Under the pieces are notes generated by a model. It saw nothing but the letters and a program-made list of their open reading frames with translations. It was not told the DNA's origin and did no database searches. A program made the translations under genes and the position numbers. 64,000 nt of DNA from an uncultured Acidimicrobiia bacterium (GTDB lineage Bacteria > Actinomycetota > Acidimicrobiia > Spongiisociales > UBA5794), in assembly GCA_963753185.1 (NCBI GenBank), contig CAVWBO010000007.1, forward strand, positions 2,507,805 to 2,571,804, written 5' to 3'. The first letter of the stretch is position 1. Each line of letters starts with the position of its first letter. This document shows, in pieces, positions 14,945-41,928 of this stretch.

Positions 14945-14989
14945 CCGATTGCCTGGAACCCGATTGCCGGGAACCCGATTGCCGGGAAC
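14945..14989. repeat. three tandem copies of a 15-bp unit CCGATTGCC(T/G)GGAAC abutting the yceI stop codon
   Basis: Direct tandem repeat in the convergent gap between the NIPSNAP-like gene and yceI. Confidence 0.7.
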
Positions 14990-16216: not shown

Positions 16217-18031
16217 ATGAATAGATACCTCATCGCAGCAGCGGTCGCCGTCCCGCTCGTCGCGGTGCTGTTCATCGGTGCCGGCTACATCCACGACGAG
16301 GTCATGTCGGACGGCAGTGTGAGTCGGGGCGTCGAGGCCGCAGGAATCGACCTTTCGCGCCTCCCTGCGGCGACCGCGCTCACTGCGGTCGCCGCATACG
16401 AGGAGCGGCTGGTGTCCGAACCGGTGGTGCTCATCATCGACGGCAAGGAGGTGGAGCTCGATCCTGCCGACGTCGACCTGGCCGTCGATGAACAAGCCGT
16501 CGTCGACGAAGCCCTCACCATCCGACGATCCGACGGAATGCTGTCCAACATCCGATCGTGGTTCGCGACGTGGTCGTCCACCGAGACCATCGACATTCCG
16601 GTGTCGTTCGACCGCGATGCGCTGGCGGCGCTGCTCTCGGGCCTGTCGCGGACGGCGATCGGGAAGCCTGCGTATGAGGGCGCCGTGCTTGTCGAGAGCG
16701 GTCTGGCGATACCCGAGTACCCGAGGCCGGGTCTGGTCATCGACGTCGATGCGTCCATTCCCCTCATCGCATCCCAACTCGAGACGCCCGACCGCTCCAC
16801 GGTCTCACTCCCGCTGATGCCGCTCGAACCTGCGGTCACCAGGGCGGATGTCGACGTCGCCGTGGCGAAGGCCAACAGGCTGATCGGCGAGCCTGTCGTC
16901 CTTCGCAAGTCGGGCCAATCCGCGACGATGATGTTCACTCCAACGGGTTTGGCCTCGGCCCTCCGATCCGAGGTCGTCGTCAACTCGCCTGCCACCCTCG
17001 AGGTTTCGCTCGACGATGCCATCCTCCGCGAAATCGCCTCAAGGACCGCCGACGAGTTCGTCGTCCCACCGCTCGACGCGACCTTCTCCTTCGACGACGT
17101 GACGAAGACCTTCACGGTCATTCCGTCGGTGACGGGGCTGAAGGTGGATCTCGACGCAATCCCGGCGATCGTGACGCGTGCGGCGCTCAGCAATCGCACG
17201 GCCGTGCTGCCGATGGCAGAAGGAGATGAGGCGGCGTTCACGACCGAGATGGCGCAAGCCATGGCACCGCTCGGAGAGGTGTCGTCCTTCACGACGAATC
17301 ATCCGTGCTGTGAGAACAGGGTCAGGAACATCCAGCTGCTCGCCGACACGATCCGAGGCTCGATCGTGATGCCTGGTGAGACGTTCTCGATCAACGAGAC
17401 AGCAGGGCAACGCACACTCGCCAAGGGGTACGTCCGAGCGGGCGCGATCATCAACGGCCGAGTCGAGTGCTGCGACAACCCCGCCAATGTCGGCGGTGGG
17501 ACGAGCCAGTTCGCAACCACCTTCTACAACGCCGTGTTCTTCGGGTGCTACGAGGATGTGTTCCACCAGCCCCACAGCCTCTACTTCTCTCGGTATCCCT
17601 TCGTCAGGGAGGCAACGCTCGGTTTCCCGGCGCCCGACGTCAAGTTCCGGAACGACTCCGACGCGATCGTCTACATCGACACGTCGTACACGCCATCGTC
17701 GATCACCGTGACCCTCTACGGGAACAACGGAGGCAGGACCTGCACGTCCGAACGGTCGGGAAACACGATCACCAGGGTCATGACGTGGCCCGATGGAAGG
17801 ATCACGACGCAGGATTGGACCTGGTTCTACAAGCAGCCACGCGAGGATGACCCTCCCCCGACGACCACGACCACCACGCAGCCACCGACGACCACGACCA
17901 CCGTGCCAGACACGACGACGACGCAGCCTCCGCCCACGACAACCACGACGACCGAGCCCCCTCCGACCACAACCACCACGACGGAGCCTCCGCCCACGAC
18001 CACGACGACGACGACGACGACGGAGCCCTAG
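16217..18031 (+). CDS. VanW-family protein with N-terminal TM anchor and C-terminal Thr/Pro-rich low-complexity tail
   Basis: N-terminal TM helix, a central YoaR/VanW domain, and a terminal (PPPTTTTTTE)n tail that ends at the stop codon. Confidence 0.7.
   Translation: MNRYLIAAAVAVPLVAVLFIGAGYIHDEVMSDGSVSRGVEAAGIDLSRLPAATALTAVAAYEERLVSEPVVLIIDGKEVELDPADVDLAVDEQAVVDEALTIRRSDGMLSNIRSWFATWSSTETIDIPVSFDRDALAALLSGLSRTAIGKPAYEGAVLVESGLAIPEYPRPGLVIDVDASIPLIASQLETPDRSTVSLPLMPLEPAVTRADVDVAVAKANRLIGEPVVLRKSGQSATMMFTPTGLASALRSEVVVNSPATLEVSLDDAILREIASRTADEFVVPPLDATFSFDDVTKTFTVIPSVTGLKVDLDAIPAIVTRAALSNRTAVLPMAEGDEAAFTTEMAQAMAPLGEVSSFTTNHPCCENRVRNIQLLADTIRGSIVMPGETFSINETAGQRTLAKGYVRAGAIINGRVECCDNPANVGGGTSQFATTFYNAVFFGCYEDVFHQPHSLYFSRYPFVREATLGFPAPDVKFRNDSDAIVYIDTSYTPSSITVTLYGNNGGRTCTSERSGNTITRVMTWPDGRITTQDWTWFYKQPREDDPPPTTTTTTQPPTTTTTVPDTTTTQPPPTTTTTTEPPPTTTTTTEPPPTTTTTTTTTEP
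17851..18030 (+). repeat. ACC/ACG-rich tandem codon repeats encoding the PT-rich tail of VanW
   Basis: Imperfect tandem repeats of CCGCCCACGACCACGACGACGACGGAGCC-like units. Confidence 0.6.
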
Positions 18032-28934: not shown

Positions 28935-29177
28935 CTAGAGGCCGAGGAGCCTGCGCGTCCCCAATACGTCGAGGAAGAACGAGTCGTCCCTCGCGCCCTC
29001 CTCGAGCGTGCGATGGATCTCCGCGAGCTTCTGCGCGACCGGTGCCGGCGAGATGACCGCGACGACCTGCGCGCCCCTGACCACGGAAACGGTCACATGC
29101 TCCATCTCGATTCGCTCGAGGATGGAAGCCGTGTCCTCGCAGAACGCCTCGACGTCGACGAATTCGTGACCTTCCAT
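28935..29177 (-). CDS. Phd/YefM-family type II antitoxin-like protein (orphan)
   Basis: 80 aa. Phd/YefM-like pattern ...ILERIEMEHVTVSVVRGAQVVAVISPAPV. No toxin gene adjacent. Weak RBS. Confidence 0.4.
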   Translation of the reverse strand: MEGHEFVDVEAFCEDTASILERIEMEHVTVSVVRGAQVVAVISPAPVAQKLAEIHRTLEEGARDDSFFLDVLGTRRLLGL

Positions 29178-29319
29178 GCGCCCATCGTACGCCTTTGATC
29201 CCTCGCCGGTGCCATCGATCCCACCGATGGGACGATGCGCTATGCGAGCCGCCCGGTATCGTCAGGATCGACAGGCGACCGATCGCCGTTGTCGCCAATC
29301 GAACCATCGAGGGGGCACG

Positions 29320-30960
29320 ATGCGGAGACACCCGCTGCTCGCAGGAGCGCTGTCCGCGCTCGTCCCCGGTCTCGGGCAGTGGTACGCAGGCGATCCATAT
29401 CGGGCCGCGATCGCCTTCTCACCGGGCGTGCTCGTGCTCACGGCGATGTACTCCTTCTGGACACGCGGAACGATCGGCATGGCGGAACTCCTGGTGCAGC
29501 CGGGCTTCCTCACGGGAGTCCTGATCGCAAACGCGGCCATCCTCGTTTGGCGCATCGGCGCATCCGTGGACGCGTACGTGATGCTCGCCAAGACGAGGGC
29601 GCGAACCCACGGAGCGGTGATCGCGCTCACGGCCATGCTCGCCGTGCTCGCCATTCCCCAGCTCGTGGGTTGGATGTATGGATCGCAAGCCATCTCCGCC
29701 CTCAACTCCGTGTTCGTTGCGAGCGGGGAGGAGATGGACGATCCAGGCACGACCACGGGGACGACGATCATCGCGCGGAACTCCTCGGGGGTTCCGGATC
29801 CTGCCCTGATCGACATCCCGGACGCTACACCGCGATCGTCCAGGAACATGATCCTCAGGCCGGGTGTCGGGGATCCGGACGCGATCGCGGCACTCGGCGA
29901 CATTCGTGCGCCGACAACCCCGGTGGCTCCATTCGTTCCCTTCACCGAACGGGTCGACCTCGACCGGATCACGATCCTGCTCGTCGGTGGTGATGCAGGA
30001 CCCGGCCGCGAAGGCCTCCGCACGGATTCCATGAACGTCGTCACCGTGGACCTCGAGACGGGCGCGACCGCGATGTTCGGGCTGCCAAGGAACCTGAAGC
30101 TCGTTCCCCTCCCCCCGCACCTGCGAACGGCGTTCGTGGACTATGAGGAGCGCGTGATCGAGCGGGACCTGACGGACGCCGACCTCGATGGGTTCCCTGA
30201 CGCCTGGGTCGACCTCGACGGTGACGCGATCCCGGACGAGCCGGAGTTCGAGAGTTGCGAATGCTTCCCCGCGATGCTCAACGAGGTCCATGGCCAGACG
30301 CGTGAGTGGACGACGACGTACGGCAAGGAGGTCGATCCCGGACTCGCCGCGCTGAGGGACATCGTCAGCCACCTCCTCGACATCGAGATCGACTACTACT
30401 TCATGGTCGAGATGGCGGGATTCGTCAGGACGATCGATGCCATCGGCGGTGTCGACGTCTACGTCAAGGATCCGTACCACGTCATGGTGTCGTCACCCGA
30501 GGAGGGCAAGCCGAAGGCCGTGGTCAACGTGGAGCCAGGGATGAACACGCTCAGCGGCCTCGAGGCGTTGGCATACACGCGTTGGCGAATCGGTTCGTCG
30601 GACTATTCCCGCATGGGTCGTCAGCGTTGCGTCATCAAGGCAGCCGCGACCCAGGCCGATACGGTGACGCTCGTCAGGTCGTTCCCCAGGTTGCTCCGCC
30701 TCATGAAGGAGTACGTCACGACCGACATCCCAGTCGCCTTCCTGCCGGATCTGGTGAGGATCGCAGGCACGATCGACTATCAGGACGTCGCGACGGTCGG
30801 TCTCGTGCCCCCGACGTACACGTCGGGCAGGACTCCGGCGCACTATCCGATCCCCGACGTCGAGCGGATGCGTTGGAAGGTGCGTGACGTTATCGAGAAC
30901 GGTGTGACGGCCCAGTCGAGGACAGGCGCATCCGAGTGCGACCCACCACCTGAGGAATAG
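29320..30960 (+). CDS. LCP-family (LytR-CpsA-Psr) cell-envelope phosphotransferase
   Basis: N-terminal TM segments, Thr-rich linker and an LCP catalytic domain (ITILLVGGDAGPGREGLRTDSMNVVTVD...). Start at MRRHPLLAGAL. Confidence 0.75.
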   Translation: MRRHPLLAGALSALVPGLGQWYAGDPYRAAIAFSPGVLVLTAMYSFWTRGTIGMAELLVQPGFLTGVLIANAAILVWRIGASVDAYVMLAKTRARTHGAVIALTAMLAVLAIPQLVGWMYGSQAISALNSVFVASGEEMDDPGTTTGTTIIARNSSGVPDPALIDIPDATPRSSRNMILRPGVGDPDAIAALGDIRAPTTPVAPFVPFTERVDLDRITILLVGGDAGPGREGLRTDSMNVVTVDLETGATAMFGLPRNLKLVPLPPHLRTAFVDYEERVIERDLTDADLDGFPDAWVDLDGDAIPDEPEFESCECFPAMLNEVHGQTREWTTTYGKEVDPGLAALRDIVSHLLDIEIDYYFMVEMAGFVRTIDAIGGVDVYVKDPYHVMVSSPEEGKPKAVVNVEPGMNTLSGLEALAYTRWRIGSSDYSRMGRQRCVIKAAATQADTVTLVRSFPRLLRLMKEYVTTDIPVAFLPDLVRIAGTIDYQDVATVGLVPPTYTSGRTPAHYPIPDVERMRWKVRDVIENGVTAQSRTGASECDPPPEE

Positions 30961-31002
30961 ACCGCTCCACCCAGCGAACTCTGCTCTCTCCCGCGACTCG
31001 GT

Positions 31003-31660
31003 CGCATCCCCTGCGTGCTCGCAGGCTCGCATGCCCCCTGGCTCACTCCGTTCGCCCGTCCCCCCTGAAGGGGGACGGCAGAGCGAAGCGATGCAGGGGG
31101 ATTCCTCGACACCCGGACCTCGCAGTCATCGGACGGTGCCAACGAGGGACAGGGGGACGGCAGAGGAGCGAAGCGACGATGCAGGGGGATTCCTCGACAC
31201 CCGGACCTCGCAGTCATCGGACGGTGCCAACGAGGGACAGGGGGACGGCAGAGCGAAGCGACGATGCAGGGGGACGTTTCCGAAGACCCACCAGCCCGGC
31301 CGCATTCCACTCCCGTGCTCGCAGGCTCGCGGACCCCCCTGGCTCACTCCGTTCGCCCGTCCCCCCTAAAGGGAGGACGAACCTCGTCCCCTCGTCCCCC
31401 TCGTCCCCCTCGTCCCCCTTTCAAGGGGGACGGCAGAGGAGCGAAGCGATGATGCAGGGGGATTCCTCGACACCCGGACCTCGCAGTCATCGGACGGTGC
31501 CAACGAGGGACAGGGGGACGGCAGAGCGAAGCGATGCAGGGGGATTCCTCGACACCCGGACCTCGCAGTCATCGGACGGTGCCAACGAGGGAGGGGGACG
31601 GCAGAGGAGCGAAGCGACGATGCAGGGGGATTCCCCGACAGCCGGACCTTCATCGGGGTC
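31003..31660. repeat. higher-order GC-rich tandem-repeat array: two blocks, each a ~65-bp leader-like segment followed by 82-88-bp direct repeats (six copies in total, two of them truncated); second block also has a (CGTCCCCCT)x4 microsatellite
   Basis: Unit: GGGGGACGGCAGAG(GAG)CGAAGCGA(CGA)TGCAGGGGGATTCCTCGACACCCGGACCTCGCAGTCATCGGACGGTGCCAACGAGGGACA. Copies begin at approximately 31070, 31152, 31240 (truncated), 31425, 31513 and 31595 (degenerate). The leader segment CGTGCTCGCAGGCTCGC...GTCCCCCCTGAAGGGGGAC occurs at about 31003 and 31315. No unique spacers are present. Confidence 0.85.
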
Positions 31661-33242
31661 AGGGGTTCGTGGTCCACAGGAGTGTGTCGGGGTGGAACTG
31701 GCTCCAGGCGAACCAGAACGCCTCGTGTGCGGCGACGGGTGTGCCGTCGACCCGCATGGCGCGAACGCCGGATCCGTCAGCGACGAGCTCGATGTCGTTC
31801 CATTGCACCGCCCCACCTGCTGAGATCATGGCCAGCGCAGCCTCGACGTCGAAGGCCATGGCCACGCCGCCTTCGATGACACCCAGCACCTTGGCCTGGA
31901 CAGGGAGCCTGCTGTCGACGTCTCCGATGGGGAAGATCGGTCCGTCGTCGTCGCGCCCGCCAAGGGGGTCGAGGTCGTACGAGCGACCGATGCCGCCGTC
32001 ACGGGCGACGATGGTCGTATCGGGGTGTGCGTCCTTCCACGCTCCCCACGTCGAGGTCACGACAGAGGTCTGGGCCAGTGTCACGCCGGCATCGAGGAGT
32101 GGGCCGGAGAGGGCTTCGCCTGTGAACGTGTCGAGCACCGAGAACGTGACGAGGTCGTACATCACCTTGTTGGATCGCGATAGCAGGCCGCTCGTCCTCA
32201 GGATCGGTTGAGCGACACCGTCCGGAACCTCGTCTGTGAAGTACGCCTGCGCCGATCCACAGAGGGTGCAGTACGGGATACCGAGCCGCCGCCCACCGAG
32301 TGTGTCGTTCACCATCTCGTGGACCTCCATGATGTTCTTCGGATACGCACGGGATTCCCCGTTGACGGTCACACCGAACACGATCCGGTCGTCGGGGTAC
32401 CAACTCCCCTCGCTGGCGCCGGTGACGGCTGGATCGTCCAGCGCGGGGATGCATCCGCGAACACATCCCGTTGTGGTTCCGAGCGGACGGTCGTCGATCA
32501 GGACACCTCCCCAGCTCACGTGGCGCCAGTCGATCAGCGCGTCAGCGTCGTCGAAGAACGCCTGCCACTTCGGTTCGACCCTTGTGAACAGCTGGGACTT
32601 CCAGTCCGCGTATCCCGCGAGGGCAGGGATGTCCCACGCGATGAGGTGGTCTGTCATCGACTGCCAGGAACTGCGCTCGAGCACGGGGTCGTCCCCCAGT
32701 GAGGTACCTGTGAGGTCTTCGAACGCATCGATGAGCGCCGCCTCGACCTGACCCCGTCCGACGAACCGGAGGATGTCGGACAGGAGCCACGCTGCGCGCG
32801 GATCACCGGAATCCCCGATGCGTGCCAGCGTCTCGAAGTTGAAGGAGACGTCGAGACCCCGGAACAAGGCTTCGATGTCGGCCACGAGCGCCGGATCAGC
32901 TAGGCCGGCGTCGACTCCGGGTGCTGCGGGAAAGACGTAGCCGACCTGATTCCTCGCCGACGCCCGCTCAGCCGGTGTGACGACGATCCCGTCTCCGGGA
33001 ACGGCACCATGTGGCTCGGTCACGGTCGACGACGTGGGAACCAGGCCGTCGAACTCGTAGCCGCTCGACGTGCACGCCGCGCTCACAATGCCTACCGCTG
33101 CTGCAAGGAGGACGACTCGGCTTCGCACGATGCCGACAACGTATGCCCCAACGCCCCGTATTCCGGTGGTGTTCACCGATTGGCAATCAGCACGTCGTCG
33201 TGGGACTCCCGAGGAGGCGGTCGCCGAGCTCGGCCTCCTCAA
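31659..33242 (-). CDS. DUF3179-domain protein (probable lipoprotein/secreted)
   Basis: Conserved DUF3179 core including GIPYCTLCGSAQAYFT. N-terminal signal with lipobox-like AAVGIVSAAC. Its stop lies inside the degenerate last repeat unit. Start uncertain. Confidence 0.6.
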   Translation of the reverse strand: MRRPSSATASSGVPRRRADCQSVNTTGIRGVGAYVVGIVRSRVVLLAAAVGIVSAACTSSGYEFDGLVPTSSTVTEPHGAVPGDGIVVTPAERASARNQVGYVFPAAPGVDAGLADPALVADIEALFRGLDVSFNFETLARIGDSGDPRAAWLLSDILRFVGRGQVEAALIDAFEDLTGTSLGDDPVLERSSWQSMTDHLIAWDIPALAGYADWKSQLFTRVEPKWQAFFDDADALIDWRHVSWGGVLIDDRPLGTTTGCVRGCIPALDDPAVTGASEGSWYPDDRIVFGVTVNGESRAYPKNIMEVHEMVNDTLGGRRLGIPYCTLCGSAQAYFTDEVPDGVAQPILRTSGLLSRSNKVMYDLVTFSVLDTFTGEALSGPLLDAGVTLAQTSVVTSTWGAWKDAHPDTTIVARDGGIGRSYDLDPLGGRDDDGPIFPIGDVDSRLPVQAKVLGVIEGGVAMAFDVEAALAMISAGGAVQWNDIELVADGSGVRAMRVDGTPVAAHEAFWFAWSQFHPDTLLWTTNP

Positions 33243-36398: not shown

Positions 36399-37166
36399 AT
36401 GAAGCCGGCGACACAACTCCAGACCCGCAGCGACCTCCGGGAAACGGACCCCGGGGGCCCGCCGCACGGCATCGAGAGGCCCGTCATGCTCCAGGAGTGG
36501 AGGAACATCACGTTCATCCACCACCGTGTCTCCCCCGACCATGTGCAGGCGTTGCTCCCGGACGGTCTCACCGTCGATACCTTCGACGGATCCGCTTGGG
36601 TCGGGCTGGTCCCGTTTCACATGGTCGGCGTCACGGTTCCCGGGATGCCGCGGATCCCGTACCTCGGCACCTTCCCCGAGACGAACGTCCGTACCTATGT
36701 CGTGGACCGCTCCGGGAGGCGGGGGGTCTGGTTCCACTCCCTCGAAGCGTCGCGCCTGATCCCGGTGTGGACGGCACGGTCCGGTTACGCCCTCCCGTAC
36801 ATGTGGGCCAGGATGGACATCACCCAATCGCGGGGGACGATCCGCTACGTCTCCCGACGCCGCTGGCCCGGACGATCCGGTGCAGGAGGTGTCATCACGG
36901 TGCGCCCGAGGATCGAGCCGGTCCCCCAGGACGACCTCGACCGCTTCCTGACCGCCCGTTGGGGTCTCTTCACATCGGGTCCGAAGGGATCACTGCGGTA
37001 TGCACCCGTCGAGCATCCACCGTGGCAGCTTCACGAGGCGGAGGTTCCCCACATCCGCGACACGCTGCTCGCCAGCGCCGGGTACGTCGACCTCGAACCA
37101 GCGGTCCACGTCCGATGGAGCGGCGGCGTACCCGTTCGTGTCGGGCTTCCCCGCCGGGTCCGCTGA
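36399..37166 (+). CDS. DUF2071 (YqjF-like) domain protein
   Basis: ~255 aa with a conserved DUF2071 pattern. RBS GGAGA before the ATG. The stop overlaps the nei start (TGATG). Confidence 0.6.
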   Translation: MKPATQLQTRSDLRETDPGGPPHGIERPVMLQEWRNITFIHHRVSPDHVQALLPDGLTVDTFDGSAWVGLVPFHMVGVTVPGMPRIPYLGTFPETNVRTYVVDRSGRRGVWFHSLEASRLIPVWTARSGYALPYMWARMDITQSRGTIRYVSRRRWPGRSGAGGVITVRPRIEPVPQDDLDRFLTARWGLFTSGPKGSLRYAPVEHPPWQLHEAEVPHIRDTLLASAGYVDLEPAVHVRWSGGVPVRVGLPRRVR

Positions 37167-37967
37167 TGCCCGAGGGCCACACGATCCACCGTGCAGCCCG
37201 GTTGCAGGCCGGAGCGCTGGGTTCAGGACCCGTTACGGTGTCCTCGCCGCAGGGTCGATTCACCCAGGGTGCCGCACTCCTCGACGGTGGAACCGTCGAG
37301 GAGATCGAAGCCGTCGGCAAGCACTTGCTCTACCACTGGGACCGTCGTCCGGTCCTGCACATCCACCTCGGGCTCTTCGGTCGTTTCACGCTGCACCGGG
37401 AACTGCCACCGCCACCGCCATCGCCGAATGCCCGCCTGACGCTGCTCGGCGACGCCGCCGTGTACCTGTCAGGACCGACCATCTGCGAACTACTCGATCC
37501 GCCCGCCGTCGAGCACCTGAAGGCTCGCCTCGGACCCGACCCCCTCGATCCGGCGGCCTGATCCGCAGCGGTTCCTCGACGCGCTCGATCGCCTCGGCGG
37601 ACCGATCGCAGCCGCGCTGCTCGATCAGTCCGTCATCGCGGGGATCGGCAACGTCTACCGCTCGGAACTCCTGTTCCTCACCGGCATCCACCCGAACCGC
37701 CCTGCCAACGAGACCACACGCGCCGAGCGGGAGGACCTGTGGCAGCGATCTGTCGACCTGCTCGGCATCGGCGAGCGCCTCGGCCGGATCGTGACGACCG
37801 ATCCACGGACCGTTGGGGTTGCGAGCCATCGAGAGATCCCGAAAAGGGCGCGGCTGTGGGTGTACAAGCGGCGATTCTCGCCGTGCTACCGATGCGGGAC
37901 GGAGATCCACGCGTGGGATGTGGGCGGCCGGTCGGTGTGGGCTTGCCCCGTGTGCCAGCCCGCGTGA
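37166..37967 (+). pseudogene. nei: Nei/Fpg-family DNA glycosylase (endonuclease VIII-like) interrupted by a +1 frameshift near 37559
   Basis: N-terminal MPEGHTIHRAARL...ARLGPDPLDPAA then stop (37559-37561). The C-terminal H2TH and zinc finger (IAGIGNVYRSELLF...CYRCGTEIH...CPVCQ) continue in the +1 frame from 37560 to 37967. Deleting T37559 restores a single ORF. Confidence 0.7.
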
Positions 37968-38663
37968 TCAGGCCGGTGCGAAGGCGTCTGCCTCGATCAC
38001 CCTGTCACCGGCAATGATGCCAGCGACGACCCTCTCGGCGACGACATCGGGGGAGACGCCCTCCGGCAGGCGAGGCGCCTCACCGGCGATGGCTCGCCCG
38101 ACCAGGCCCGTTTCCGTGTGGGGCGGCCTGGCATCGATCACGGCGATGCCGATGCGCCGCAGCTCGCGGGTGAGGGCCACCGTCGCTGCTGACAGACCGG
38201 CCTTCGCCGCCGAGTAGGTCGCCATGCCGGCGGTCGGCATGGTGGCGACGATTCCGCTCAGGTTGACGATGAATCCACCATCCATGCGCGGGATCGCGTA
38301 CCGATAGACGTGCAGGGGGCCCGTCAGGTCCACGGAGATGACCTCGTCGATGACCACGGGATCGGTGTCGGCGAGAAGCCCGAACGCGACGACGCCAGCG
38401 GCGTTGACGATCCCGTCGAGTCGGCCGTGCGCGGCGATCGCTGCATCCACCGGGATGTGCGCATCGTGCGGGTTGGAGAGGTCGAAGACGGACGTCTCCG
38501 CGCCCGGAATCCCTCGTGCAACCGCATCGAGCCGCTCGTGAGATCTACCGGCGACCGTGATGAGCGCGCCCTCGACAGCCAGGCGCGTGGCGATGCGGCT
38601 CCCGAGCGCTCCGGATCCACCGAGCACGAGGACGGATGACGAACGGAGGTCGATCGATGCCAT
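37968..38663 (-). CDS. SDR-family short-chain dehydrogenase/reductase
   Basis: Start at MASIDLRSSSVLVLGGSGALGSRIA (Rossmann TGxxxGxG-like), with YxxxK downstream. The upstream part of the track ORF is unlikely to be coding. Confidence 0.7.
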   Translation of the reverse strand: MASIDLRSSSVLVLGGSGALGSRIATRLAVEGALITVAGRSHERLDAVARGIPGAETSVFDLSNPHDAHIPVDAAIAAHGRLDGIVNAAGVVAFGLLADTDPVVIDEVISVDLTGPLHVYRYAIPRMDGGFIVNLSGIVATMPTAGMATYSAAKAGLSAATVALTRELRRIGIAVIDARPPHTETGLVGRAIAGEAPRLPEGVSPDVVAERVVAGIIAGDRVIEADAFAPA

Positions 38664-39576: not shown

Positions 39577-40433
39577 GGCGCAGCGACGTGATCTCGCCAG
39601 GAATGGCCGGGTGCGTATCCGAGCACAGCCCTCGCCTTGTCGATTGCCAGGAGGGTCTCGTGACCCGCAATGGGTCGGCTCAGCGGGACGTTCGGATACA
39701 CGGCCTCGAGCAAGGATGCGCTCGGTGTGGTCATGCACGTGTCGGCTGCGGCGACGAGGAAGGCCTCGTGCCCGGTCACGTCCCCGATGAGGGCGAGCCG
39801 TGCTGCTTGCGCGACGTCCCTGGCATCCACGTATCCCCATAGGTTCCACGCCCGGATGCGCGGGTCGTCCCAGAAGTCGGGAAACCGGTCGGTGTAGTCG
39901 GAGGGGTTCATGATGTTGGAGATCCGGAGGGACACGTGGGGAGTGCCGCTCCAGCGTGCGAACTGCGCCGCGATCGACTCTCCCGCGATCTTCGACAGCG
40001 CGTAGTGGGACTCGGGGAGCAGCGGGTGATCCTCGTCGATCGGCGCGTACCGGGGCTGCTCACGCTCGAAGGGGAGCCCGATGAGGGTCTCGGAGGATGC
40101 CCAGACGACCCTCGCCATCTTCAGCTTCCTCGCGGCTGAGAACACGTTGTACGTGGACATCATGTTGGTTCGGAAGGTCTCGCCGTTCGCCACGATGTTG
40201 GGCGCTGGGATCGCCGCGAGATGCACGACGGCATCGAACCCCTCGAGCGACTCGATCGTCTGGCCGAGATCCGTGAGATCCACGACGAGGGTCGGCTGAT
40301 CGGGATCCCTGGACTCGGCGATGTCGATCGATCGCGCTTCGAAACCGTGGGTACGAAGGTCGTCCACCACTGCGACACCCGCCTTGCCGCTTCCCCCGGT
40401 CACCGCCACACGTCCCACGGACACGTCAGCCAC
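39573..40433 (-). CDS. NAD-dependent epimerase/dehydratase-family protein
   Basis: VTGGSGKAG Rossmann motif and a YxxxK motif (YALSK). Confidence 0.7.
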   Translation of the reverse strand: MADVSVGRVAVTGGSGKAGVAVVDDLRTHGFEARSIDIAESRDPDQPTLVVDLTDLGQTIESLEGFDAVVHLAAIPAPNIVANGETFRTNMMSTYNVFSAARKLKMARVVWASSETLIGLPFEREQPRYAPIDEDHPLLPESHYALSKIAGESIAAQFARWSGTPHVSLRISNIMNPSDYTDRFPDFWDDPRIRAWNLWGYVDARDVAQAARLALIGDVTGHEAFLVAAADTCMTTPSASLLEAVYPNVPLSRPIAGHETLLAIDKARAVLGYAPGHSWRDHVAAP

Positions 40434-40484
40434 CTCGATCTCGCTGCCCTCCCACGCTACCAGCGGGCCGGGCCGACGAATCGA

Positions 40485-41928
40485 TCAGGTCGTATCCGAG
40501 ATGTCGACGATCATCGTCTGGAGGTCGGTGAAGTCCCCGACGGTTCCTCGCCCCCATCCCGAGTCCGTGCCCGCGGCGCCGCCGAAGGGCTGGAACGTCT
40601 CCCAGAAGTCCGTGGAGTCGTTGATGATCACCGTGCCCGACCGGATCCGGTCGGTGTACCAGAACGCCCTTCCGAGGGATCTGGTGAACACGGCAGCTTG
40701 GAGACCGAGTCGCGATGACGAAGCGATCGCCACAGCGTGCTCGTCATCGCGCGCGGTGAGCACGGGTAGCACGGGACCGAACGACTCCTCCGTCGCGACG
40801 AGGGCATCCTCGGGAACTCCATCGAGCACGGTGAACTCGTAGTACAGGTCGGTCGGGTAACCGGGGGCTCGATGACCGCCGACGAGCAGGTCGGCGCCGC
40901 GCTCGAGTGCGTCAGCCACGTGCCGATCCATCTTGGCGGCCGTCGCCTCGTTGTTGAGTGGGCCCATCGTGGTGGACTCGTCGAAGGGGTCTCCGAGTCG
41001 GACCGCGGCGGCCGCGGCTCGAGCGAGCTCGACGAACTCGTCGTGGACATCGTCGACGACGATGAGCTTCTCGGTTGCACAGCACACCTGCCCGGCGTTG
41101 TAGTAGGCGCCGTAGACGGCGAGCTCGGCTGCCGCCGCGACGTCGGCGTCGGCGGTGACGATCGTCGGCCCGTTGCCGGACATCTCCATGATCGAGCGCT
41201 TGATACCCATGATCGCCAGGATCCTCTTCCCGGTCTCGGAGGATCCGGTGAAGCCCACACCGTCCACGTGGCGAGACGTGACGAGCTGCTCACCGATCGA
41301 CGCACCACCGGGGATGATCGACACGAGACCCTTGGGGACACCCGCTTCGTCAAACGCCTTGGCGAGCTCGAGGAGGGCCCATGAGGTGAACTCGGGAGGC
41401 TTCGCAACGACGGCGTTCCCTGTTCGCGAGGCCGGGTCCGATGTACTCGAGGGGGATCGTGACGGGGAAGTTCCACGGGGTGATCGCTGCCCAGACACCG
41501 ACCGGTCGGGGGAACGTGAACATGCGCTTGTTCCGGTCCGAGGTCGGCAGGACCGATCCGTTGAGGCGCTTGACATCCTCGGCTGCGTTGAGGAAGTACT
41601 GATTCGCCTCGGTGATGTCAGCGAGAGACTCGGCGTGATACGGCTTGCCTTGTTCGAGGGTCTGGATACGGGCGACCTCCTCGATGTTGTCGGATACCGC
41701 AGCTGCGATGCGATGCATGAGGTCGGCCCGCTCGATTGCGCTCCAGTGTCTGAACTGGTCCTGGGCCTCCCTCGCAGCCAGGAGCGCACGCTCGACATCG
41801 GACGCGGACGCGATCGGGACGTTGGCGACGTGCTCCCCTGTCACGGGAGACATGAGCTCGTGATGCGAATCACCGGTCCCGTCGGTCCACTCGCCCGCGA
41901 TATAGATCTGGAGGTCTGCCGTCATCAC
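40485..41928 (-). pseudogene. aldehyde dehydrogenase (ALDH superfamily) with a frameshift near 41423
   Basis: The N-terminal 168 aa (…WNFPVTIPLEYIGPGLA) lie in one frame. The remainder (TGNAVVAKPPEF...catalytic Cys in QVCCATE...EESFGPV) lies in the +1 frame. Removing one A from GCGAACAGG restores a full ALDH. Confidence 0.7.

Follow-up and report, generated by a model that had tools for sequence, protein, structure and literature searches.

A Repeat Array between an LCP Gene and a DUF3179 Gene as a Probable Cluster of Modular, Palindrome-Bounded Elements Dispersed in Acidimicrobiia

We analyzed a 64,000-nucleotide stretch of DNA (the window) from an uncultured Acidimicrobiia bacterium (GenBank assembly GCA_963753185.1, contig CAVWBO010000007.1, positions 2,507,805 to 2,571,804 of the forward strand). 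The window is a housekeeping region with genes for phenylacetate catabolism, ABC transporters, NAD-glutamate dehydrogenase, and UvrD, and the top 25 families listed for its 49 predicted proteins include no transposase family. The subject of this report is a repeat array at positions 31014-31649, in the gap between an LCP gene and a convergent DUF3179 gene. A preliminary description made from the sequence alone had reported a tandem-repeat array here, and the array is real: Tandem Repeats Finder (TRF) found an 88-nt period in 6.4 copies over 31089-31649 with a score of 403, versus 135 for the runner-up tandem repeat in the whole window, and it resolved the fourfold microsatellite of that description as a 9-nt unit in 4.3 copies at 31382-31419. 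The 14-mer repeat core GGGGGACGGCAGAG occurs six times in the window, always inside the array, against a chance expectation of 0.14. No part of the repeat unit recurs elsewhere in the window, and the three GTCCCCC-loop-GGGGGAC hairpins that the window contains all lie inside the array.

The array is built from a few modules. R, with the sequence GGGGGACGGCAGAG(GAG)CGAAGCGA(CGA/TGA)TGCAGGGGGA, is 32 to 38 nt long and present in six direct copies. S is present in three identical 50-nt copies, a 48-nt copy, and a partial copy (31631-31649), and C is a linker between R and R'. R', with the sequence CCCCC(C)TGGCTCACTCCGTTCGCCCGTCCCCC, has two copies starting at 31034 and 31334/5 and is an inverted imperfect copy of R (77% complementary); R' and the first R together form a 31-bp imperfect palindrome. 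We parsed these modules into three elements, namely, E0, of which only the tail is present (31014-31069) and which is fused hairpin to hairpin with E1; E1, (R-S)2-R-C-R' with a terminal hairpin (31070-31378); and E2, a truncated microsatellite-TTTCAA-(R-S)2-R-S' (31382-31656). The features of the locus are as follows.

29176..30960, plus strand: LCP (LytR_cpsA_psr) gene, upstream flank (Pfam PF03816, E 6e-22)
30961..31013, plus strand: spacer after the LCP stop codon; its 3' part (..CGGTCGCATCCCCTG) is weakly C-like by eye when set against 31275-31313
31014..31069, plus strand: E0 tail, consisting of the C-module end CGTGCTCGCAGGCTCGC, R' (31034-31064), and the loop TGAA
31058..31076: hairpin 1, GTCCCCCC-TGAA-GGGGGAC, center of the R'-R1 palindrome
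31070..31101, plus strand: R1, 32 nt
31102..31151, plus strand: S1, 50 nt
31152..31189, plus strand: R2, 38 nt, with GAG and CGA insertions
31190..31239, plus strand: S2, 50 nt, identical to S1
31240..31274, plus strand: R3, 35 nt, with a CGA insertion, start of the canonical R-C-R' unit
31275..31333, plus strand: C module, the R-to-R' linker (from an alignment of 15 elements)
31334..31366, plus strand: second R'
31359..31378: hairpin 2, GTCCCCCC-TAAA-GGGAGGAC, the usual right end of an element
31382..31419, plus strand: about 4 copies of the microsatellite unit TCGTCCCCC, which usually borders R-S arrays on the left (TRF)
31412..31431: hairpin 3, GTCCCCC-TTTCAA-GGGGGAC, the canonical left-end hairpin
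31425..31462, plus strand: R4, 38 nt, with GAG and TGA insertions
31463..31512, plus strand: S3, 50 nt
31513..31544, plus strand: R5, 32 nt
31545..31592, plus strand: S4, 48 nt, lacking the terminal CA
31593..31630, plus strand: R6, 38 nt
31631..31656, plus strand: degenerate truncated S, array end (17 of 19 matches to S over 31631-31649)
31659..33242, minus strand: DUF3179 gene, downstream flank, stop codon at 31659-31661 (Pfam PF11376, E 2e-60)

The preliminary description had read the array as a leader plus repeats, occurring twice. The leader sequence does occur twice, at 31014 and 31314 (88-97% identical), but it is the end of a C module plus R', i.e., the 3' part of a preceding element. 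Its predicted hairpin of 7 to 8 bp is present, but the R' of the leader also pairs with R1 in the 31-bp imperfect palindrome. The spacer upstream of it may be a decayed piece of E0, to judge from its faint likeness to C. The successive units are 82, 88, 88, and 80 nt long. Their length differences come from GAG and CGA/TGA trinucleotide duplications within R, each adjoining an identical trinucleotide, and from the loss of CA in S4, so that the earlier statement that units differ only by 3-nt indels holds except for this 2-nt deletion.

We found no sign of protein coding in the array. Open reading frames (ORFs) across it have flat GC contents at the three codon positions (GC1/2/3 = 0.67/0.68/0.70, versus 0.65/0.49/0.81 and 0.67/0.51/0.78 in the flanking genes) and gave no Pfam match at E up to 1, and its units of 80, 82, and 88 nt are not multiples of three, all of which agrees with the earlier judgment that the array is noncoding. 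A Shine-Dalgarno (SD) sequence with an ATG inside R (GAGGAGCGAAGCGACGATG) was considered as the start of a small ORF and ruled out by the flat codon-position GC and the nontriplet units, and also because the SD sequence is missing from the 32-nt variant of R. A match of the unit to an Rfam family had been raised as a possibility, and none was found: the whole window gave no match at the gathering threshold, the array region gave only miRNA-type noise at E up to 10, and in 12 related loci the repeats stayed unmatched, the only matches being unrelated tRNA and signal recognition particle RNAs or noise. A scan of the array detected no sigma-70-like promoter and, on either strand, no U-tract terminator-like site.

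The unit belongs to a dispersed family, as the preliminary description had asked. We scanned one genome per GTDB species with the pattern GGGGGACGGCAGAG-N0-3-CGAAGCGA, which covers the first 22-25 nt of R, and recovered 34 stretches (here called loci, L001 onwards) in 12 metagenome-assembled genome (MAG) assemblies, almost all of them labelled Acidimicrobiia, Acidimicrobiaceae, or Actinomycetota; a census of the repeats across loci was made by BLAST. A single MAG had up to 11 contigs with R matches, and many matches lay close to contig ends. The R pattern had no match in viral contigs, plasmids, or phages. Scans of metagenome contigs with the S core and with the R-S junction returned zero matches, which is not evidence of absence because the collection does not include the Joint Genome Institute (JGI) samples described below, and one contig from those samples (L050) carries the junction pattern. 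One contig with R copies (CAXMSN010000056.1, L021 and L023) comes from a MAG labelled Kiloniellales (Alphaproteobacteria) and is probably a mis-binned actinobacterial contig, with horizontal presence of the family as the alternative.

Alignment of the copies in their contexts gave a canonical element, (TCGTCCCCC)n - GTCCCCC-TTTCAA-GGGGGAC - (R-S)n - R - C - R' - GTCCCCCC-T(G/A)AA-GGGAGGAC, in which the right arm of the left hairpin is the start of R and the GTCCCCCC of the terminal hairpin is the end of R'. The commonest copy number of R-S is zero, and one to three copies are found in L001, L005, L006, L014, and L019. Each part of the window array has counterparts at other loci. A C-R' tail like that of E0 follows R in 15 elements from 13 loci; homologues of S occur in L001, L005, L006, L014, L019, and L028; a terminal hairpin like hairpin 2 is present in L001, L002, L005, L006, L008, L014, L015, L024, and L035; and the (TCGTCCCCC)n microsatellite lies upstream of R in L001, L005 (7 copies), L006, L008, L014, L019, L048, and L050. 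Elements are often chained through a linker, H, of about 70 nt that bears a CCGATCAC-GNA-GTGATCGG hairpin, and the modules R, S, C, R', H, and X (an insert described below) recur in fixed orders across MAGs. The more distant MAGs (L017, L021, L023, and L025 to L032) keep the left hairpin, R, and an R'-like partner around centers that differ and often contain short tandem repeats. R is nearly invariant across the 12 assemblies while the flanking modules diverge, part of this invariance stemming from the selection of loci by the exact first 22-25 nt of R.

All 38 repeat clusters are intergenic by the gene calls of a heuristic GC-frame gene finder. Among the 16 clusters with both flanking genes called, six lie in convergent, six in tandem, and four in divergent gaps, and clusters are also found beside tRNA genes. 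Where R adjoins the 3' end of a gene, the two are co-oriented in 15 cases and anti-oriented in 11; where it adjoins a 5' end, the numbers are 9 and 12. The family has no orientation bias relative to genes.

Orthologous loci show what has changed around the array. The window locus has its orthologue in L015 (JAWOGV010000301.1), with 87% nucleotide identity in the LCP gene and 86% in the DUF3179 gene; L015 has the order LCP - [X - partial R - R-C-R'] - acyltransferase_3 - 271-aa gene - DUF3179. In L035 (87% identity of the DUF3179 protein), this R-C-R' again lies upstream of an acyltransferase gene, and the contig terminates in the repeat. At both loci (L015:2044-4314 and L035:6471-7950) the acyltransferase_3 gene lies between the repeat and the DUF3179 gene, and L015 adds the 271-aa gene, which encodes a membrane protein. 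Neither gene is present at 31380-31660 of the window, where element E2 takes their place. A 2.2-kb acyltransferase segment of the closest relatives is thus missing from the window at precisely the position of the array. Common to all three loci is the R-C-R' unit that follows the LCP gene (window 31239-31378 aligns at 85% identity with R-C-R' of L015), and all else differs. The R3-C-R' unit of the window is thus ancestral at this site, and by the same comparison the R-S amplifications and E2 are private to the window lineage. At the more distant syntenic loci L036 and L037, whose DUF3179 proteins show 68-73% identity, there is no repeat, and a membrane ORF of 86-96 aa occupies the site. Two other pairs, L005/L006 (upstream of fdhD) and L002/L014 (beside a tRNA gene), share a conserved site with different mosaics. 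Since orthologous loci carry different arrays, the arrays turn over fast.

The last, degenerate unit had been credited with supplying the 3' end and stop codon of the DUF3179 gene, which the orthologues contradict. Homology of the DUF3179 gene to L015 and L035 starts at 31657, and both have the same ...GGTCAG(G/C)GG... end with no array there; the stop codon and the last codons are therefore ancestral. An exact-protein look-up of the window DUF3179 protein returned no record. Its 527-aa read-through ORF has a longer N terminus than homologues of about 489 aa, and translation probably begins at a site downstream of the annotated TTG. NCBI names some close homologues (P0043, P0075, and P0097) "DUF3179 domain-containing (seleno)protein." At L006:1333-2960, a formate-dehydrogenase-type Fe-S/molybdopterin-Fe4S4 ORF stops at a TGA directly after the Fe4S4 domain and is followed by about 550 bp of family repeats and then by fdhD. 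Its catalytic domain seems to be absent or to lie elsewhere; alternatively, the gene may be disrupted and its TGA may encode selenocysteine.

Clustering of the 172 predicted proteins of the 34 loci identified a single recurrent nonorthologous protein beside the repeats, an IS481-type rve (DDE) transposase (L003 and L004). Through homologues of the L004 transposase, we located 15 additional copies of its insertion sequence (IS) in three JGI metagenomes (L038 to L052). This IS481-like IS is 1105 bp long, with a single 327-aa rve ORF and the terminal inverted repeats (TIRs) GGTGTCC...GGACACC (e.g., L043:1241-2345). Twelve of the 14 complete copies have GTCCCCC plus 6 nt on the left and the identical 6 nt plus GGGGGAC on the right, i.e., a 6-bp target-site duplication (TSD) that is the hairpin loop; the TSD is TTTCAA, or TTGAAA for the opposite orientation of the IS, and once TTTTCA. 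R or its complement adjoins the IS copies, and the R copies sampled in this way differ from the consensus by at most one base. The insertions represent about 11 distinct loci. At two of these, the IS is found in either orientation, depending on the contig or sample, and always with the TSD that corresponds, which implies that one hairpin was hit more than once independently. Another IS481-family element, distinct from the first (L003:446-1499), lies inside CCCGTCCCCCC-TTCAG-GGGGGGACGGG, and its 5-bp TSD, TTCAG, is again the loop. These results show that the hairpin loop of the family is a specific insertion target. Hairpin 3 of the window is the exact target motif of the IS481-like IS.

We also considered whether the repeats could be miniature inverted-repeat transposable elements (MITEs) of the IS481-like IS. 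This was ruled out, as the element ends TCGTCCCCCTTTCAAGGGGGACGG bear no relation to the IS TIRs (GGTGTCCTGTCGCG...) and the TSDs of the IS fall cleanly within the hairpin loop; the repeats are the target of the IS and not its MITEs. The IS copy at L004:690-1815 is bordered by TTTCAA at one end and by TTGAAA at the opposite end. Its flanks are thus inverted and not a direct duplication, which suggests that two IS copies underwent inversion or recombination or that the MAG contig is chimeric. Homing to REP (repetitive extragenic palindromic) sequences is known for members of the IS3, IS110, IS4, IS256, and IS5 families (PMC1525189), and homing of an IS481-type element to palindromic repeats appears to be new.

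The same loop position holds a conserved noncoding insert, X, of 96-98 nt in eight loci (L015:4508-4604 on the minus strand, L006:2490-2585, L002:728-824, L012, L016, L018, L004, and L022). X always lies between GTCCCCCTTTCCA and GGGGGACGG, and no copy is present in the window. Three hairpins are predicted in it, with the more stable fold on the R strand (three copies gave -49 to -51 kcal/mol), and it has no ORF and no Rfam match at the gathering threshold. The conserved sequence upstream of R in these eight loci had been tried as the right end of an IS200/IS605 element (a TnpB omega-RNA); this was ruled out, since it is the 97-nt insert X with no ORF nearby.

The R'-R1 palindrome folds at -51.7 kcal/mol on the plus strand and -55.6 kcal/mol on the minus strand (z -3.3 and -3.8), and R-C-R' folds at -75.7 kcal/mol (z -2.2) on the strand complementary to R versus -57.3 kcal/mol (z -0.1) on the other. 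S and R-S units fold no better than shuffled sequences (z 0.1 to -0.4). Each of nine homologous S variants from six MAGs forms a hairpin, eight of them better on the strand complementary to R (e.g., -20.4 versus -4.9 kcal/mol for the L014a variant). MAFFT and alifold gave no usable consensus for these nine variants, though each folds singly. For 15 R-C-R' elements, RNAalifold produced a 34-pair consensus in which nearly all pairs are invariant and one is compensatory, a result that is uninformative either way.

We consider it likely that the array is a cluster in which three copies of one noncoding repeat family adjoin or overlap, a family that is modular, bounded by palindromes, and dispersed in the intergenic regions of Acidimicrobiia. 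The family is dispersed, intergenic, orientation-neutral, modular, and palindromic, and it turns over fast at fixed sites. Elements would have been joined, fused, or inserted at their terminal hairpins to produce the window array, which would also have grown at the DNA level as direct R copies recombined unequally or slipped during replication. Growth of this kind fits the identical S copies, the GAG/CGA slippage in R, and the expansion of the 9-mer, and the 100% identity of the S copies supports recent amplification. A deletion at the array may have removed the neighboring acyltransferase segment. The term minisatellite, offered in the preliminary description, falls short as a full account, because tandem R-S amplification is one layer of a mosaic element family. 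The repeat would be essentially selfish or neutral structural DNA that creates hot spots for recombination and IS insertion between genes, as REP sequences, bacterial interspersed mosaic elements (BIMEs), and BOX elements do, and the two convergent genes may possibly be affected through hairpins in their 3' untranslated regions (UTRs), any such effect being a by-product.

Several findings weigh against this account. A single cluster of the family is present within the 64-kb window. Among the loci compared, there is no empty-site/filled-site pair for the repeat itself, so its mobility is inferred, and no TSD was identified for it. The targeting IS aside, no RAYT-like (REP-associated tyrosine transposase) or other transposase recurs beside the copies among the 172 predicted proteins. 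For both S and R-C-R', the better fold is that of the R-complementary strand, an asymmetry of the G.U type that could reflect selection on one single strand, RNA or single-stranded DNA, or inheritance from master copies. Finally, R is nearly invariant in all MAGs, including the copies sampled through the IS, while its surroundings diverge. Purely selfish decay does not predict this near-invariance, which hints at a sequence-specific partner.

R (GGGGGACGGCAGAG(GAG)CGAAGCGA(CGA)TGCAGGGGG) might be more than selfish DNA and serve as the recognition site of a dedicated trans-acting partner conserved across Acidimicrobiia, an idea that we regard as tentative and unlikely. Candidates would be a nucleoid protein, an RNA-binding factor, and a transposase or recombinase that acts on single-strand DNA but is not a RAYT. 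Such a partner would explain the near-invariant R, the strand asymmetry (G.U pairs on the R-complementary strand), and the homing of a coevolved IS to the adjacent loop.

Equally doubtful is a selected function as a cis-acting RNA structure, with the hairpins in the LCP and DUF3179 3' UTRs serving as terminators, 3'-end stabilizers, or insulators. In its favor, R' and R form a strong palindrome (-52 to -56 kcal/mol, z near -3.5) that folds better on the minus strand, which is the DUF3179 sense strand, implying G.U pairs; six of the 16 clusters with both flanks called sit between convergent genes; and REP and BOX repeats have been reported to affect the expression of neighboring genes (PMC3049150). 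However, neither strand has a U-tract terminator-like site, the repeats show no orientation bias relative to flanking genes and also occupy divergent and tandem gaps and sites beside tRNA genes, the S and R-S units are no better than shuffles, and the single compensatory pair in 34 leaves helices that are simply invariant. Since X prefers the strand opposite to that of S and gene orientation is random, a single transcript-level function is not supported.

An array of trans-acting small RNA genes or a structured RNA, with R as its sequence-conserved functional core, is very unlikely. It would accommodate an R that stays nearly invariant across 12 assemblies while its neighbors diverge, and the S variants, whose hairpin persists as the sequence changes, with one double change (C-G to U-A) separating the window from L005. 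Against it, the array scan found no promoter-like or terminator-like sites, Rfam gave no match even at E up to 10, covariation is essentially nil, and the opposite strand preferences of X and S fit no single transcript orientation. Moreover, R occurs in both orientations relative to genes and has the degenerate inverted partner R', as is typical of DNA palindromes.

An assembly artefact, i.e., a wrong copy number or order of identical R-S units, seems just as improbable. Units that are 100% identical over 50-82 nt invite such errors, and the family breaks many short-read MAG contigs (at least 12 of the 34 loci have a repeat within about 300 nt of a contig end). Comparable arrays are nevertheless found in independent assemblies (L001, L005, L006, and L014), the alternating R variants of 32, 35, and 38 nt and the private 2-nt deletion of S4 provide unique anchors, and the orthologues L015 and L035 confirm an element at the locus. 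A degenerate or orphan array of clustered regularly interspaced short palindromic repeats (CRISPR), suggested by 32-38-nt direct repeats about 50 nt apart, can practically be dismissed, in line with the preliminary description and its remark that unique spacers are missing, because the "spacers" are identical (50 nt three times and 48 nt once) and homologous to "spacers" of other genomes, the repeats vary between 32, 35, and 38 nt through indels, some repeat copies are inverted, most copies elsewhere are solitary and dispersed R-C-R' units, and no cas family is among the top 25 families listed for the 49 predicted window proteins.

By analogy, the architecture of the family appears closest to that of the BOX elements of Streptococcus pneumoniae and also close to REP, BIME, and REPIN (inverted REP doublet) sequences (PMC2817692, PMC3116915, PMC3333891). 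BOX is a composite interspersed intergenic repeat, boxA-(boxB)n-boxC, with end modules that pair and a middle module present in zero to several tandem copies, variable among strains; it measures from under 100 to over 600 bp, contains spurious ORFs on both strands, and is often clustered (PMC3049150). R and R' pair like the BOX ends, and the S-R copy number varies like that of boxB, giving (R-S)n-R-C-R' with n = 0-3 across loci. The analogy is one of architecture only: the sequences share no similarity or homology, the host here is a high-GC actinobacterium, the tandem unit includes a copy of the end module (R-S) instead of a separate box alone, each end bears its own short GC hairpin, and neither a TSD nor a mobilizing IS was identified for the family.

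Like the REP/BIME/REPIN sequences of Proteobacteria, the family consists of short GC-rich palindromes confined to intergenic DNA (GTCCCCC-loop-GGGGGAC and the R/R' pair at 34 loci in 12 assemblies, with 38 of 38 clusters intergenic, counts that are not per complete genome). It also forms mosaic clusters with specific linker modules, and R-C-R' (about 135 nt) is an inverted doublet able to form a long hairpin, as in REPINs. Specific IS elements target it, as they do REP sequences (PMC1525189), here in 12 of 14 complete IS copies and by a second IS in L003, although the targeting IS is of the IS481 type and thus outside the five families of that report. REPIN-RAYT systems have a single-copy RAYT gene (a Y1 HUH transposase) between inverted REPs; no RAYT or IS200-like gene was found beside the copies in the 34 loci. 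RAYTs have been reported from Proteobacteria only (PMC2817692). The GT(A/G)G head of REP sequences is also missing, the hairpins here being preceded by TC/CC and followed by GGCAGAG, and R, at 32-38 nt, is itself no palindrome. The R-S arrays are tandem and direct, whereas the orientation in BIMEs alternates.

Two further repeat types share parts of this organization. The intergenic mosaic elements of Neisseria (NIMEs) consist of RS units flanked by dRS3 repeats, such that a short conserved repeat alternates with variable units of 50-150 bp; they are hot spots for insertion and recombination, and the 20-bp dRS3 is an integration site of phage/IS110 type. The family resembles NIMEs in the alternation of a short repeat with variable units and in its hot-spot behavior but differs in sequence and host, and we know of no NIME equivalent of the long R/R' palindrome. 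The mycobacterial interspersed repetitive units used as variable-number tandem repeats (MIRU-VNTRs) likewise lie between genes of actinobacteria, as tandem units of 50-100 bp that are dispersed over tens of loci and differ in copy number among strains. MIRUs, some of which contain small ORFs that are coupled to the neighboring genes, are simple tandem repeats and have none of the palindromic end modules, hairpins, or IS targeting of the present family. Full-text literature searches for such repeats in Acidimicrobiia found nothing. The family is thus apparently undescribed, while its kind is already known (REP/BIME/BOX-like mosaic repeats).

Elsewhere in the window, a 15-nt unit is repeated three times in tandem in an intergenic gap (14945-14989). 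Tandem units of 24-30 nt at 17858-18013 lie at the 3' end of the ORF at 16217-18031 and are probably a coding low-complexity tail. Two segments of 1.5-1.9 kb (36414-38310 and 39849-41350) have no gene that passes the GC-frame filter and no Rfam match.

Interspersed hairpin repeats (REP/BIME/REPIN, BOX, and NIME) are well studied in Proteobacteria, Firmicutes, and Neisseria, and the Acidimicrobiia are a largely uncultured class that is abundant in soil, wastewater, and the sea. In practical terms, the family breaks short-read MAG assemblies, yields spurious ORF calls, and offers markers of the VNTR type. It also marks hot spots of gene-order change, such as the missing 2.2-kb acyltransferase segment at the window array. 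The main points of interest are the unusually invariant R core and the clean targeting of a hairpin loop by the IS481-like element. The loop-specific IS would add a sixth family to those known to home to palindromic repeats, and it provides a clean natural example (12 of 14 copies) of hairpin-directed target choice by a DDE transposase. If R does have a dedicated protein partner, the family would represent a REP-RAYT-like symbiosis between host and repeat that arose independently in Actinomycetota.

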